Below, in pieces: positions 31,325 through 54,567 of a stretch of 59,955 bases of DNA; position 1 is the stretch's first letter, and each line of letters opens with the position of its first letter. Origin of the DNA: Candidatus Parcubacteria bacterium. Its GTDB lineage: Bacteria; Patescibacteriota; Minisyncoccia; Phycocordibacterales; JBAYGS01. The notes under the pieces are model-generated. The model ran no database searches and was not told the DNA's origin. It saw nothing but the letters and a program-made list of their open reading frames with translations. The stretch spans positions 1-59,955 of the forward strand of contig JBDKKW010000004.1 of NCBI GenBank assembly GCA_039795895.1, given 5' to 3'. Made by a program: the position numbers and the translations under genes.

Positions 31325-31573
31325 ATGGAACCAACAAACAACACGCAAGGAAAGTATACGCTCGGCATTATCATTCTCGTTATCCTCGTTATCGCTGGAG
31401 GCTACTTCTTCTTTAAAAAAGATAAGGCTCCTGCTACAGAAAGTACTCCGGTAGCAGAAGAAACTACCACGACTGATACGAGCGCAACAGACACTGGAAC
31501 CAAAACAACTACATCAACCACGGTCACCAAGACCCCAAGTCTTCCAGCAACTGGCTACGCACCACGACAGTAA
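31325..31573 (+). CDS. Small N-anchored Thr-rich protein ending in an LPATG sortase motif
   Basis: N-terminal TM, T/S/E-rich stalk, ...PSLPATGYAPRQ-stop; directly upstream of the sortase. Confidence 0.8.
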   Translation: MEPTNNTQGKYTLGIIILVILVIAGGYFFFKKDKAPATESTPVAEETTTTDTSATDTGTKTTTSTTVTKTPSLPATGYAPRQ

Positions 31574-31614
31574 TCGTCGACAATACGAGCTCGCGCTCAC
31601 ACAATAGATACCCC

Positions 31615-32232
31615 ATGCATTCTCGCACACTAGCGAAGCAGGTATGCACCATCATCACACTCGTGGGTATCGCTTTTGCTGTATGTGCTTTTACCTATCC
31701 TGACACACTCGGTCAGATACGTATTCGACTGAGCAGATGGAGTGAGTCTGGTACACGAACGACTGAGCTTGCTCTGCAACCCGGACTCCCCACCCTTCTC
31801 ATCCTCCCGAGACTCAATATCCGTGCGTCAGTTGAATCGATCGGCCTCACCAAAGACGGTGCACTCGACACTCCAAAAGAACCAGACATCGTCGCCTGGT
31901 TTAACGCCGGCCCTCGACCTGGAGAAAAAGGAAATGCGATTATCGACGGGCACTATGGATGGAAAGATGGTATTCCAGCGGTATTCGATTCCCTCTCTCA
32001 AACGCAAATTGGCGACAGTATTTCAATACAAGACGATCATGGCAACGTGATTACTTTTGTAGTACATAAGATACAAATCTACACCAAAGAAGACACTACT
32101 TCGGATATTTTTAATGCACAAGACAAAGATGCACACCTCGTCCTCATCACCTGCCAAGGTGCATGGAACAAGGCAAGCCAAAGTTATGCAGGGAGATTGA
32201 TCGTGTTTGCGGACAAAGTGGAGACACTGTAA
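31615..32232 (+). CDS. Class F sortase
   Basis: N-terminal TM, W...GPRPGEKGNAIIDGH (His), LITC (Cys), GRLIV (Arg). Confidence 0.92.
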   Translation: MHSRTLAKQVCTIITLVGIAFAVCAFTYPDTLGQIRIRLSRWSESGTRTTELALQPGLPTLLILPRLNIRASVESIGLTKDGALDTPKEPDIVAWFNAGPRPGEKGNAIIDGHYGWKDGIPAVFDSLSQTQIGDSISIQDDHGNVITFVVHKIQIYTKEDTTSDIFNAQDKDAHLVLITCQGAWNKASQSYAGRLIVFADKVETL

Positions 32233-32301
32233 CTCGGGTATTTTTTAATGCGCTCAGAGGGAAATTGTGCTACAGTATTTTGCGACTCGAAGAGAGTCCA
32301 C

Positions 32302-32389
32302 GGAGACGTGGTGGAGTGGTCTAACATACCTCTTTGCTAAAGAGGCAGGGCCTTTAAAGCCCTCGAGGGTTCGAATCCCTCCGTCTCCG
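32302..32389 (+). tRNA. tRNA-Ser(GCT)
   Basis: Acceptor GGAGACG/CGTCTCC, G73, anticodon arm CCTCT-TTGCTAA-AGAGG, long variable arm, GAGGG-TTCGAAT-CCCTC. Confidence 0.96.
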
Positions 32390-32391
32390 CA

Positions 32392-32582
32392 ACGTCAATG
32401 AAAAATACCGCGGAAAAGGTATTTTTCATTGACGTCATGTTTGAGACGGAGGGATTCGAAAGACGCAGACGGAGAAATTCGCAAGAATTTCTGACCGGCG
32501 AGTCGGGGTCGAGAGTACTTAGATTTTTGTGAGCAAAGCGAAACAAAAAGCTTAGTAACTCGTGACCGGATCCCTCCGTCTC
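32392..32582. repeat. tRNA-associated cassette 1 (hairpin, antisense 3' end, structured insert, sense 3'-end copy)
   Basis: 18-bp hairpin 32392-32435; 32443-32460 is the reverse complement of tRNA 32370-32387; 32570-32582 is a direct copy of the tRNA 3' end. Confidence 0.85.
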
Positions 32583-32601
32583 TTTCCCCAAGTCCCCATC
32601 T

Positions 32602-32688
32602 GGAGAGATGGATGAGTGGTTTAAATCAACGGTTTACTAAACCGTCGTTCCTTAATTGGAACCGTGGGTTCGAATCCCACTCTCTCCG
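32602..32688 (+). tRNA. tRNA-Ser(ACT), rare A34 anticodon
   Basis: Acceptor GGAGAGA/TCTCTCC, G73, anticodon arm ACGGT-TTACTAA-ACCGT, long variable arm GTTCC/GGAAC, GTGGG-TTCGAAT-CCCAC. Confidence 0.93.
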
Positions 32689-32690
32689 CA

Positions 32691-32818
32691 GGAGTTTAAA
32701 ATGAAGTTTTAAAGTGGGATTCGAAAAGCTTCTCCCATATTTTCAAACGATTCTTATCGTGCGAAAATGGGAAAGCTGTACTGCGACTGTAAGTCGAGAA
32801 ATTCCCACTCTCTCCGCA
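32691..32818. repeat. tRNA-associated cassette 2
   Basis: 32713-32725 is the reverse complement of tRNA 32669-32681; 32803-32818 is a direct copy of 32675-32690; internal hairpins lie between. Confidence 0.85.
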
Positions 32819-32888
32819 AAATAAAATCGCCAAAGGTGAGATTCACAGGCAAGATATGACCCTCTGAGGAGGTGGTATAATTGCAACC

Positions 32889-33881
32889 ATGGAAACACAA
32901 GGTGAAAACACTTCTAGACTTATTCTTAAGAACGAACCGAAATTATCTGAACACGAAGCACAGAGTACATTCAACGAGAGGCGGATAAGCCTTGTTCCCT
33001 TAGTTAGAGACTTTATTTCGACCCACGAAAGATTTAAAGACAAAGAAGTTAGTATTACATTTGCTCACAAAGGTGTTTCATCTCTGATAAGTATCATAGA
33101 GGTGGACAATGAGAAAGTTGTTTTAAAGATTCCACTAGGTGGCGGTCATTCTAGAGGTGAAGCTTTGTTTCTGAAAGTATGGGCTGAAGCAGGAGTTAAG
33201 GTACCCCACGTAATAGAAGAGGGTGTTTTGGGTGAACACGCTTACACACTAATGGAGTATGTAGACGCACCTATTTTAGGGGAAACGTATAATAAACAAG
33301 AGTGTATCGAAAAGGGAGTTTATGTTGAAATGGGAAACATGCTTCGTCTCATGCACGAACCAAAAGCAGAAGGCTACGGTCGTGTTATTGACGGAAAAGG
33401 AGAGTATGCAGAATTCACAGATTTACTTTCAGGTGAAGACCTGCAAAGAAGGGTTAAGTACGTTACAGATCACAAACTTCTTGGAGATGAGCACGGAGTA
33501 CTATCTCTTGCGTTTGAAATTCTTACTGAACATGTCCGCAGAGAGAACAAAAGCAGTTATTGTCACGACGATTTTGGTACCTACAATATGTTTGCAACAC
33601 ACCCAATTACAGTTTTTGATCCGAATCCTAGATTCAATAATCGCTATTTGGATTTGGGTCGTACCATACTACTTGGTATAGCTCACGATGGTATCTTCTC
33701 TGAAAAATTAGTTGATAGTTATTTTGAAGGTAATCCGTACGACCAAAAAGCTTTGCATGCATCAATATTACTCAATGGCTATATGAAATTTTATTATTGG
33801 AGTAAAGTAAAAAGATTCAAAAATATAAAAAACGTTCAGGATTACCTTATTAAGAATAAGCACTTGTTGATAACCACTTAA
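32889..33881 (+). CDS. Aminoglycoside phosphotransferase/choline kinase-like protein
   Basis: VVLKI, VPHV, LMEYV, Brenner motif CHDDFGTYN, VFDP, DLG; visibly AT-rich. Confidence 0.8.
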   Translation: METQGENTSRLILKNEPKLSEHEAQSTFNERRISLVPLVRDFISTHERFKDKEVSITFAHKGVSSLISIIEVDNEKVVLKIPLGGGHSRGEALFLKVWAEAGVKVPHVIEEGVLGEHAYTLMEYVDAPILGETYNKQECIEKGVYVEMGNMLRLMHEPKAEGYGRVIDGKGEYAEFTDLLSGEDLQRRVKYVTDHKLLGDEHGVLSLAFEILTEHVRRENKSSYCHDDFGTYNMFATHPITVFDPNPRFNNRYLDLGRTILLGIAHDGIFSEKLVDSYFEGNPYDQKALHASILLNGYMKFYYWSKVKRFKNIKNVQDYLIKNKHLLITT

Positions 33882-49566: not shown

Positions 49567-49642
49567 GCGCCTGTAGCTCAGTTGGTAGAGCAGGTCTCTT
49601 ATACAGACAAGGTCGGGGGTTCGATCCCCTCCAGGCGCACCA
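49567..49642 (+). tRNA. tRNA-Ile(TAT)
   Basis: GCGCCTG/CAGGCGC acceptor, A73, encoded CCA, anticodon loop CT-TAT-AC, GGGGG-TTCGATC-CCCTC. Confidence 0.92.
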
Positions 49643-49643
49643 A

Positions 49644-50315
49644 TCATTTGTTTTTCGAACCACACATTTCCGAAAGACTCTTTACCCCCATCAATACATA
49701 CTCTGCAATATCCCTATTCTCAATAATCACACTGCACGTACCATGCCCAAAACCCGTCTTGTACGTAATATCACTTAATCTGGACTCTTTTACATAGGGC
49801 TTCCTGAATTGTCTTCTTGGTATTGATAATTCTTTTGCCCAAAAAGAAATTTGTTTTTGAATATCCATATCTGAATAAAGTTGCAAACTTACTTTTACTT
49901 TTCTTTTATCTACACCAAGTGTCTCGATCCATCTCATAAAATATTTCATCATTTGTGGATTTGTATTCGTAAGTGCCATCGTTGCTTTAGTGCTTTTCCA
50001 ACCCTCTCCCCAATACAAGAAAAAACCCGTCAAAAATATCTCCCTCCGGCTTAATACTCCGATATCTTTAATTACTCGCCGAAAGACACTATCCAACCGG
50101 TCCTGCCTTTTACGCATCTTAGTATTACGACAACGCTCTATCCGCATAGGATTTAATGCTCCAAGCTCTTTAATTCTCTCTTCAGAAAGTGGCATATTTC
50201 TAAGCCAGCCACTCAGGGTACTCTTGCTGACACCTAACTCTTCTTTTATTTGAGAATAACTCATCCCCTTATTTCTCAAAGAAATCGCTTTTGATTTATC
50301 TTCAAATCGGGCCAT
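49644..50315 (-). CDS. HTH plus LAGLIDADG-like domain protein (LYWGEG family), abutting the tRNA
   Basis: N-terminal HTH (LRNKGMSYSQIKEELGVSKSTLSGW), then LYWGEG..K, TNTNP, FW; AT-rich. Confidence 0.7.
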   Translation of the reverse strand: MARFEDKSKAISLRNKGMSYSQIKEELGVSKSTLSGWLRNMPLSEERIKELGALNPMRIERCRNTKMRKRQDRLDSVFRRVIKDIGVLSRREIFLTGFFLYWGEGWKSTKATMALTNTNPQMMKYFMRWIETLGVDKRKVKVSLQLYSDMDIQKQISFWAKELSIPRRQFRKPYVKESRLSDITYKTGFGHGTCSVIIENRDIAEYVLMGVKSLSEMCGSKNK

Positions 50316-50421
50316 AAATACGTACCATAGAATAGTAAGTGGTACATTAATTATACATAGATACGGATATTGCGACCAATAAAATTATCCCCAACTAAAT
50401 AATACGTGCTAGACTACAGAC

Positions 50422-50679
50422 ATGAATACTTCTAAAAAGATCTGGTTTCGAGCAAAAAGATACGGATGGGGTTGGACACCAACAAGCTGGGAGGGGTGGG
50501 TAATTATGCTTGTATATATCATATATCTCGTGCACACATTTCGAGTGATTGACTCGATGCAACATTCCGGAAGCGATACGTTAATCAACTTCGCTCCACG
50601 ATTTATCTTTGCCACACTTATTTTGTTAGCAATTTGTTACACTAAAGGTGAGAAGCCAGGATGGCATTGGGGAAAATAG
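50422..50679 (+). CDS. Small 2-TM membrane protein
   Basis: WFRAKRYGWGWTPTSWEGW and KGEKPGWHWG motifs. Confidence 0.8.
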   Translation: MNTSKKIWFRAKRYGWGWTPTSWEGWVIMLVYIIYLVHTFRVIDSMQHSGSDTLINFAPRFIFATLILLAICYTKGEKPGWHWGK

Positions 50680-50778
50680 ACATGAGTAGTTAGTAGTGAG
50701 ACATAAGATGGGAAACCCCTGGAAATTGCTCCGCAATTTCCAGGGTCATTCCCCATTCATGAATCATAAATCTGGCTT

Positions 50779-54054: not shown

Positions 54055-54456
54055 GGGGATGATCGGCCTAGACAGGAGACTTATGTAGTATTGCGCATTG
54101 TGGAGCTCCATTAACTCCTAAATCTGATGGAAATTGTAACTGCAAAAACAGTTGCTCGAGCAAAGTCTATTGTGTCACCATTTTTTGGTGCCAAGGACCT
54201 TGCTTTCGCTTACGCATTAGCCTAAGCGACATTGACCAAGCTCTCTCCACGGGGTTTGGACCCAGTGTTATATAGTGGATTAGAATATATCTATTTTCCC
54301 GAGATACATTCGAAACTAAGGGAATCGGCGATGGTGAGTTTTGCTCATTCAATATCACACTCGCTTAAATCTGCTCACGCAGAAAAAATCAGCTATACAA
54401 TGTAGATCCAATATTAACTATTCTCTTGCACCCGAGTTCGATTCTCGGCATCTCCA
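54055..54456 (+). ncRNA. ssrA: tmRNA
   Basis: GGGGATG/CATCTCC-A acceptor with G3-U70, T arm CCGAG-TTCGATT-CTCGG, tag frame 54142-54225 ending ALA-stop, next to smpB; terminator ~54465-54489. Confidence 0.95.
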
Positions 54457-54567
54457 CTGCGTACAAAACCACCCGAAAGGGTGGTTTTGTTTAACCTTGA
54501 CATATTTATTATTAATGCTAACATGATAAGCGGAATCGTCCCTCAACAACATCAAAAAAGACTACGC

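Follow-up and report, generated by a model that had tools for sequence, protein, structure and literature searches.

The CTX phage, an integrative mobile element exploiting Xer (IMEX), mimics dif and integrates through XerCD via a folded single-stranded attP. Integron cassettes carry strand-specific folded sites, attC, in which structure is conserved above sequence, and they stack in arrays at one site. Integrative and cis-mobilizable elements at tRNA genes duplicate the tRNA 3′ end from the T-loop on, leave the gene intact and accrete in tandem. Here we analyze two units that lie behind the tRNA-Ser(GCT) and tRNA-Ser(ACT) genes of a Candidatus Parcubacteria bacterium and that resemble each of these systems in part. 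Both units lie in a stretch of 59,955 nt (contig JBDKKW010000004.1, positions 1 to 59,955 of the forward strand), called the window throughout, which is contig C4 of a 31-contig, 860-kb genome (G000) that is 99% complete. Units of this kind are gene-less and about 100–250 nt long. They share one architecture, are specific for the tRNA that they follow, contain folded cores of two covarying families and are spread across the bacterium’s order; they turn over between relatives, form tandem arrays, occur as orphan copies and are found at a target that is not a tRNA. We consider it likely that they are mobile fold-back insertion modules of gene 3′ ends.

A full unit reads in a fixed order: the tail of a gene (S1), a trailer hairpin that often carries a T run, a block antisense to the gene tail (A), a core and a duplicate of the gene tail (S2). 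The first unit of the window, cassette 1, shows this order on the forward strand, on which all parts of both window units lie. Its target, tRNA-Ser(GCT), occupies 32302..32390 (ARAGORN; Rfam tRNA 57.2 bits). A search for inverted and direct repeats defined S1a at 32370..32387, the stretch of T-loop, T-stem 3′ strand and acceptor 3′ strand that is both mirrored and duplicated downstream. A trailer hairpin follows at 32392..32435, with an 18-bp stem (32392–32409 against 32418–32435, 100% complementary) and an 8-nt loop. The antisense block A-a (32443..32460) is the exact reverse complement of 32370–32387 over 18 nt (100%), and it also pairs with 32567–32582 (16 nt, 94%). A type A core with two hairpins spans 32467..32567 (model R1, 53.5 bits, E = 4.8e-10). 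The duplicate of the tRNA 3′ end, S2a (32567..32582), is identical to S1a over 13 nt exactly (32570–32582), or over 16 nt at 94% (32567–32582), and by pairing with A-a it closes the cassette.

The second target, tRNA-Ser(ACT) (32602..32689; ARAGORN; Rfam tRNA 59 bits), starts 19 nt past S2a. In cassette 2 the trailer hairpin is small (32695..32712, from the sequence and a fold of 32663–32730), and the antisense block A-b (32713..32725) is the exact reverse complement of 32669–32681 (13 nt, 100%). It is followed by a type B core (32721..32800; model R2, 75.8 bits, E = 1.7e-15) in which a GTACTG linker joins a long hairpin to a short one whose loop reads TGTAA. The duplicate S2b (32803..32818) equals 32675–32690 over 16 nt (100%) and runs through the discriminator and two bases more. 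The repeat search returned the same hairpin, antisense and sense coordinates that an earlier note had read from this sequence. Both units therefore combine a same-strand position behind a gene 3′ end, an antisense block, a covarying core and a 3′-end duplicate, the four features by which the family is recognized.

Structure prediction supports two ways of folding these segments. Closed cassette 1 (32443–32582) has a predicted fold of −65.6 kcal/mol (z = −7.4), and cassette 2, closed by antisense:sense pairing, one of −34.7 kcal/mol (z = −4.0). When S1, hairpin and antisense block of cassette 1 are instead folded back on each other, the prediction is −62.6 kcal/mol (z = −13.3) with the trailer hairpin at the tip. 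Between the repeats of the window units there is no open reading frame of at least 60 amino acids except chance frames, and a scan of 32150–32950 returned neither promoter-like sites nor terminators; in both units a T-run terminator is absent between tRNA and antisense block. Because tRNA-Ser(ACT) starts so soon after S2a and no promoter-like site is nearby, cassette 1 is probably transcribed inside a di-tRNA precursor. The anticodon ACT (A34) in a tRNA-Ser is unusual for bacteria. The gene follows tRNA-Ser(GCT) at 186–212 nt in G000 and in the relatives G001 and G373, and at greater distance in the loci of G087, G142 and G056; because it is kept in these relatives, we regard it as a conserved gene and not a decaying copy.

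These two loci compare with the described systems as follows. In a CTX-type IMEX, a folded site plus an inverted copy would yield the order target (S), loop, antisense, element, S, which is the order of the units, and such integration would also allow tandem arrays; S1 and A of the window units can form a duplex like that of the target, with 18 and 13 bp, each perfectly matched. Unlike such elements, the units have more than 20 tRNA tails and the end of the protein gene topA as targets, they are tiny and gene-less, and neither Rep or phage genes nor a free or viral form was seen for them. Integron cassettes share the strand-specific folding and the stacking, whereas the units lack a GTTRRRY-type core site, an integron integrase and attI, their arms copy the target gene, and their cargo is a small folded core in place of an open reading frame. 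The elements at tRNA genes share the duplication from the T-loop on, the intact gene and the tandem accretion; the units differ from them in being without an integrase, in their size, in the antisense block, in the folded covarying cores and in the variable length of the duplicate.

The pattern is not confined to the two serine tRNAs. The earlier note had named absence from other tRNAs, together with transcription ending before the antisense segment, as what would speak against its reading, but in G000 an exact antisense copy (at least 10 nt) of the tRNA’s own 3′ end lies within 450 nt downstream of 18 of the 41 tRNAs, mostly with a sense copy beyond it. In an all-against-all control, which covered 38 tRNAs (three with too short a downstream sequence were left out), an antisense match of at least 12 nt was found behind the tRNA’s own gene in 15 of 38 cases, compared with 5 of 1406 mismatched pairs of tRNA and flank; these five are pairs of tRNAs with partly common 3′-end sequence. 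The antisense matches to the own tRNA are not due to chance.

Recurring sequences from the tRNA flanks were used to build two covariance models, R1 for type A cores and R2 for type B cores, which find 16 and 12 copies in the genome, respectively. Nearly all of these (26 of 28) lie 32–339 nt behind a tRNA on the same strand, and 21 of the 41 tRNAs are covered, leaving 20 without a detected core; tRNA-Tyr, tRNA-Gly(CCC) and tRNA-Gly(GCC) have arms with cores that R1 and R2 do not detect. The two inserts of the window had been described as unrelated. This holds when they are compared with each other, but each belongs to a multi-copy family of its own.

Both families are defined by structure. The type A consensus reads AGMCGGAG, a hairpin, CGAGKCRGGGTCG, a long hairpin and GTGACC. 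Its first hairpin is enclosed by a 3-bp helix (GAC/GUC, GCC/GGC or AGC/GCU) and a tandem G-A motif, and its long second hairpin carries a conserved G-U pair. When 72 distinct sequences of type A, drawn from about 50 genomes, are aligned, 97.8% of cells are paired and 17 of 19 pairs have changed on both sides, a value as high as which was reached in 0 of 500 shuffles. For type B (23 sequences) the corresponding figures are 93.6% and 16 of 17 pairs. Both alignments were fitted to the models, which favors structure; controls with slid partners drop to 23–57% paired. The G-U pair is kept in 64 of the 72 type A sequences, and the fold therefore lies on the tRNA strand. No Rfam family matched the cores (31500–33500 at E ≤ 1, five other cassette loci at the gathering threshold, two orphan loci at E ≤ 0.1). 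Beyond tRNAs, the only matches were sub-threshold and far below gathering scores: long-hairpin (microRNA precursor) models, plastid models overlying tRNA genes and a few weak small-RNA models. Small ribozymes were considered and set aside, as hammerhead-like junction motifs misfit by eye and no Rfam ribozyme model matched. Many of the trailer and side hairpins ahead of the cores (loci L031–L070 and those of G000) have stems that vary with compensating changes and a constant loop, ACTGCT or a close variant, which suggests a recognition site.

The arms differ in sequence at every tRNA, where they match the target. In 11 of 26 units of G000, a hairpin placed exactly at the junction of T-stem and acceptor (65/66) divides A in two: 8–9 nt complementary to the gene’s last 9 nt come first, then an 8–9-bp tetraloop hairpin, then 10–17 nt complementary to the T-loop and the T-stem 3′ strand. 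A reaches T54/G53 in every case; S2 starts at positions 56–61 and ends at the discriminator or beyond. The shortest duplicates have 3 nt and the longest about 65 nt. It measures 28 nt at tRNA-Gly(CCC), including 8 trailer bases, and 24 nt at tRNA-Ile(TAT) of G001, including an encoded CCA and 4 trailer bases. Because S2 can include trailer bases, the duplicate was copied from the gene or its precursor and not from a mature tRNA. A pairs with the discriminator and trailer bases as well, and palindromes that run from S1 through the trailer hairpin to A and include trailer bases are perfect over 26 bp at tRNA-Phe and near-perfect at tRNA-His, tRNA-Tyr and tRNA-Asp. A short-arm form also exists, in which a tRNA and a T-run hairpin are followed by 5–7 nt of antisense, a type A core and a repeat of 3–4 nt; it makes up 14 of the 32 type A cores of relatives that have a tRNA in the retrieved stretch.

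Two simple origins of A can be rejected. A is a true complement of the 3′ strand: the tRNA-Asp unit has an A opposite U69, where the tRNA itself has a G, and the non-palindromic T-loops of tRNA-Tyr, tRNA-His, tRNA-Thr, tRNA-Met and tRNA-Val appear in antisense within their blocks. Both observations rule out a duplicated piece of tRNA gene. A mature tRNA as template, of the primer-binding-site type, is likewise ruled out, as trailer bases are included and CCA is missing where the gene has none. Most tRNA genes of G000 lack an encoded CCA.

The units are widespread in the order, and type A is rare outside it. Of 151 genomes sampled from the order, 122 contain type A, at most 28 times each, and 92 contain type B, at most 31 times each; the totals are about 900 and 700 matches. 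In a sample of the phylum, type A was found in 6 of 151 genomes, two of them inside the order, which leaves 4 of 149 outside. Neither model finds a match in at least nine of the genomes sampled from the order (G004, G008, G009, G011, G017, G037, G038, G053 and G057).

Close relatives differ at the very loci of the window. In G001, from the same genus, tRNA-Ser(GCT) has a core of the A2 type and a different trailer hairpin between the same arms. Its tRNA-Ser(ACT) carries two tandem units, A2 and then B; the T-stem 3′ strand of this tRNA reads CTCGC where that of G000 reads CCCAC, and both arms track the change. Among 28 tRNA-Ser(GCT) loci of the order, six have no unit, six have a Ser-specific variant of type A and three another type A; five have type B, four a phage-type module, two an unclear remnant, and one each A2 and an inverted type A. 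The Ser-specific variant has an extended second hairpin, and its six genomes belong to six families. The inverted core (L086, G026:C87, at a contig end) comes after a trailer hairpin and antisense block behind tRNA-Ser(GCT), and it looks as if a convergent tRNA-plus-cassette unit abuts there. In G032 both arms read CCCAC where the tRNA-Ser(GCT) reads CCCGC; in G006, by contrast, the antisense block follows the tRNA and S2 has decayed. At tRNA-Ile(TAT), G001 has a type B unit followed by a type A unit and G000 has none. In the window this gene (49567–49642) is followed by about 1.07 kb of unrelated DNA (49643–50712) before the shared terminator and downstream gene, and we discarded the locus as an empty-site comparison because it is not clean.

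Signs of copying are present within G000. Although they lie on different contigs, the unit that follows tRNA-Lys(TTT) and the one that follows tRNA-Val(TAC) agree at 131 of 138 positions (95%), from the base after the tRNA to ..GACCACA, whereas the tRNAs agree at 57 of 74 positions and the 40 nt beyond the units at 15 of 40. One of the seven differences falls in the 5-nt antisense block, where each unit matches its own tRNA (CGCAC versus TGCAC). Similarly, the type B cores of tRNA-Arg(TCG) and tRNA-Ser(GGA) are nearly identical from the T-loop complement on, and their left-hand adaptors are wholly different. Tandem arrays stand at tRNA-Asp, tRNA-Glu(CTC), tRNA-Leu(CAA), tRNA-Val(TAC) and tRNA-Thr(GGT). 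Two copies are orphans: one at C2:62092–62177, with a decayed S2, bears arms that match tRNA-Asn(GTT), a gene located at a distance of 11 kb, and the other, a type B variant at C1:38670–38735, is intergenic with no tRNA nearby.

The same design is found behind a protein gene. In G146 and G097, which belong to different families, type A cores follow topA, at the end encoding the C-terminal topoisomerase zinc ribbons (Zn_ribbon_Top1). Here A is complementary to a coding stretch of 11–12 nt that lies about 70 nt upstream of the stop codon, and a decayed copy of some 60–80 nt of the topA end follows the core (alignment scores of 40 and 53, against maxima of 32 and 31 in 200 shuffles). The fold-back design is therefore not bound to tRNA biology as such, and all readings that rest on a tRNA-specific function are weakened.

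These observations fit best with the suggestion in the earlier note that the cassettes are tRNA-templated mini mobile elements: many tRNAs are used, sister species differ, units stand in tandem and a protein gene is among the targets, although neither an enzyme nor a free form was found. That the units move at all is, in our judgment, quite likely. A selfish module would insert within a gene’s 3′ end or immediately after it, and the gene stays intact because that end is duplicated. A single strand, either RNA or single-stranded DNA, would close through A:S2 or fold back on the gene through A:S1. If a strand with S, hairpin and A folded as the target duplex were integrated, the product would read tRNA (S), hairpin, A, core, S, and tandem arrays would also arise, by the logic of CTX-phage integration and, less closely, of integron attC sites; alternatively, fold-back priming at a terminator hairpin and template switches would yield the sense-antisense-sense order. 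Whether A and S2 are written from the target at the time of insertion or have slowly co-evolved with it seems to us an even bet. The folded single-strand intermediate and the fold-back, template-switch replication event are, taken together, possible but doubtful, and neither model alone explains how one core comes by arms for more than 20 targets. Still more tentatively, the units may be a protein-less, target-matched mobile element, in which A guides the insertion or is written by fold-back synthesis and the core settles behind almost any tRNA gene, even behind protein genes, rebuilding the gene end. Such an element would be moved by host replication and repair enzymes or by an unrecognized enzyme acting in trans. 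In a bolder variant, the closed RNA form, which contains the tRNA’s own acceptor strand, would itself be handled by tRNA enzymes.

Several results weigh against this interpretation. No IS200-type Y1 transposase (Y1_Tnp), IS110 transposase or TnpB was found in G000; it has one tyrosine recombinase (a Phage_integrase match on another contig) and one reverse transcriptase, and no integrase is encoded in or beside the units. Reverse transcriptases occur in 62 of the 151 order genomes and do not track the cassette load: the cassette-rich G026, G014 and G018 lack one, and the cassette-free G008, G037 and G057 have one. No excised form was seen, nor a clean pair of empty and filled alleles at one locus with alignable flanks, and viral contigs of IMG/VR gave 0 matches to two patterns, a gapped motif for type A and an exact string of 24 nt for type B, whose narrowness makes this a weak negative. 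Other findings point to selection on the folded strand, which a host-useful RNA explains equally well: the long hairpin of the Ser-specific variant is kept through compensatory changes in its six families, the two arms of the tRNA-Leu(TAG) unit both lack 4 nt that the tRNA has and nevertheless remain complementary, and the split of A falls exactly at a structural junction of the tRNA. In addition, near-identical cores with different arms could also result from gene conversion between cores. With regard to the reverse transcriptase, the sole such gene of G000 (C2:25137–25595) is about 400 nt from a type A unit behind tRNA-Ala(TGC) (C2:24618–24720), which is probably a coincidence because the enzyme is unrelated to cassette load across the order.

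The main rival is that the units are tRNA-like RNA modules useful to the host, contained in read-through or polycistronic tRNA transcripts, with the A:S2 helix recognized or excised by tRNA enzymes (RNase P, 3′ trimming) or with the units insulating or processing neighboring tRNAs. Such a role is compatible with mobility; as an explanation of the units, we think it unlikely. The A:S2 helix contains the 3′ strand of acceptor and T-stem and often has a side hairpin where the D and anticodon domains leave in a tRNA, and the position of that hairpin in the split units, the transcription of cassette 1 that we expect within a precursor, the placing of the type A fold on the tRNA strand and the retention of the Ser-specific variant would all be in keeping with a functional RNA. 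So would the arms at tRNA-Leu(TAG) and at the tRNA-Ser(GCT) of G032, which have changed in step and thereby departed from the tRNA. In RNA libraries of relatives, both cores are covered by contigs, at depths of about 3–170 compared with thousands for tRNAs; this is a weak hint, as DNA carry-over is possible, and bins without coverage are uninformative. One such contig of 768 nt contains a tRNA, 109 nt and a type A core. Furthermore, no RNase Z above the NCBIfam cut-off was found in G000 (the best match scores 19 bits, in a 469-aa frame at C4:59561–59713). A type A RNase P RNA is present at C3:34148–34508.

Against a host function stands the patchy distribution: copy number per genome varies between none and about 30, no core was detected at 20 of the 41 tRNAs of G000, and some genomes of the order gave no match to either type. 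Many units lie behind T-run hairpins that resemble intrinsic terminators by eye. Because A also pairs with the discriminator and trailer, the resulting helix has no free tRNA-like 3′ end. Units behind topA with a decaying copy of coding sequence are hard to reconcile with a tRNA-processing role, as is the use of one arm design by several unrelated core families.

A second possibility, put forward in the earlier note, is a cis-acting RNA switch with mutually exclusive states, in which A pairs either with the 3′ half of the tRNA, blocking its folding, or with the downstream copy, releasing it, and so tunes maturation. Both states are indeed predicted. For tRNA-Ser(GCT) with its cassette they are near-isoenergetic: pairing of A with S1 (and of the tRNA 5′ strand with S2) is predicted at −134.6 kcal/mol, and the canonical tRNA with closed cassette at −130.5 kcal/mol; for tRNA-Ser(ACT) the values are −81.2 (A:S1) and −74.1 kcal/mol. 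The lack of a T-run terminator between tRNA and A in the two window units would allow such pairing. However, a dedicated regulator is hard to square with how the units are distributed. In relatives a given tRNA has a different unit or none, units are absent from about half of the tRNAs and from many genomes of the order, many units follow hairpins that look like intrinsic terminators, and the design recurs behind topA. Short-arm units offer just 5–7 nt of complementarity, from behind a T-run hairpin; A matches the genomic trailer where a gene has no encoded CCA; and the Rfam scans reveal no element that senses a ligand or signal. We consider a switch very unlikely.

It seems slightly less probable still that the units are scars of integrase-mediated islands or prophages, with attL and attR left side by side after a deletion, or cis-mobilizable att cassettes moved by phage integrases. 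The direct repetition of the tRNA 3′ end from the T-loop to its end or beyond, as at classical tRNA att sites, the tandem accretion and the phage-type module at the same tRNA-Ser site in 4 of 28 relatives are what such a history would leave. But the single tyrosine recombinase is encoded elsewhere, an antisense block is unexpected at attL or attR, and the inserts are folded cores with strand-specific covariation instead of arm sites in double-stranded DNA. More than 20 targets in an 860-kb genome would need as many integrase specificities, and the duplicate varies in length. The decoy att sites proposed in the earlier note likewise found no support. A search for distant copies of tRNA tails that might mark kb-sized islands returned none beyond local copies and isoacceptor or sequence-related tRNA genes; the sole exception is an antisense match to the tail of tRNA-Ser(CGA) on contig C2, which may be a prophage end.

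Equally improbable is a sense-antisense-sense triplication that arises without any dedicated element when replication folds back and switches template at the terminator hairpins of tRNA genes, as in inverted-triplication rearrangements, for although the long near-perfect palindromes with their trailer bases, the roughly coinciding boundaries of A and S2 and the lack of an enzyme speak for it, it leaves unexplained the sharply bounded cores that recur about 900 (type A) and 700 (type B) times, the side hairpin at its fixed junction and the 95%-identical whole units behind different tRNAs.

The reading of the units as mobile modules also bears comparison with other described classes. Miniature inverted-repeat transposable elements (MITEs) and repetitive extragenic palindromic (REP) repeats, including REPINs, are gene-less, multi-copy, hairpin-forming and patchy among relatives, as the units are; in the units, unlike in these, the terminal inverted repeat is the target sequence and so differs from site to site, there is no duplication of fixed length, and G000 has no parent insertion sequence or RAYT-type gene. 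Group II introns resemble them in carrying a block, sometimes in two parts, that is complementary to the flanking target (exon- and intron-binding sequences, EBS-IBS). The units, at about 100–200 nt, differ in having no ribozyme domains or Rfam match, in duplicating the target end and in having no linked reverse transcriptase. Retroelements differ on this last point as well, and in the units A follows the genomic trailer, where CCA is not encoded, instead of a mature CCA end.

Two comparisons concern tRNA structure itself. In the alternative fold, in which the 5′ part of the tRNA pairs with S2, a unit resembles a large insertion in the T-loop, and thus recalls archaeal T-loop introns and split or permuted tRNAs. 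However, the upstream tRNA is complete without splicing, and a splicing-type T-loop intron was rejected, as no tRNA splicing endonuclease was found in G000; the presence of a gene for transfer-messenger RNA (tmRNA) shows the host to be bacterial, unlike those of archaeal split tRNAs. The tRNA-like domain (TLD) of tmRNA, viral tRNA-like structures (TLS) and MALAT1-associated small cytoplasmic RNA (mascRNA) mimic the acceptor and T-arm and offer tRNA enzymes a free 3′ end. In the units, the A:S2 helix has the 3′ strand of the tRNA and a side hairpin at the 65/66 junction; A, however, complements that strand exactly instead of repeating the tRNA 5′ strand, and it also pairs with the discriminator.

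Full-text literature searches, judged on titles and the openings of abstracts, returned no description of the units, and the family is apparently large and undescribed. We know of no element class that inserts at many targets without a recognizable recombinase and writes the mirror image and a duplicate of each target. Regarded as miniature mobile elements at gene 3′ ends, the units have a real chance of representing a new mechanism: if mobile, they would insert in just this way. If they are functional RNAs, they would form a new abundant class tied to tRNA expression in bacteria that apparently lack RNase Z. In a genome of 860 kb, such modules stand at roughly every second tRNA gene, and most genomes sampled from an order of the candidate phyla radiation (CPR) contain them; the tails of tRNA genes are thereby marked out as places where CPR genomes change especially often. 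They are also a source of confusion in annotation, where they resemble tRNA fragments, false att sites and false prophage borders.

Two neighboring observations concern RNA genes of G000. In the window, the tmRNA gene (54055–54457) lacks a cassette; an ordinary terminator comes after it. A different conserved module, which spans about 200 nt and contains a GC hairpin and several AAGTTCGAACCGA motifs, stands behind tRNA-Ser(TGA) in G000 (C14:20679–20923) and behind tRNA-Ser(GCT) in four relatives (L078, L080, L090 and L100), and is probably a phage attachment region.

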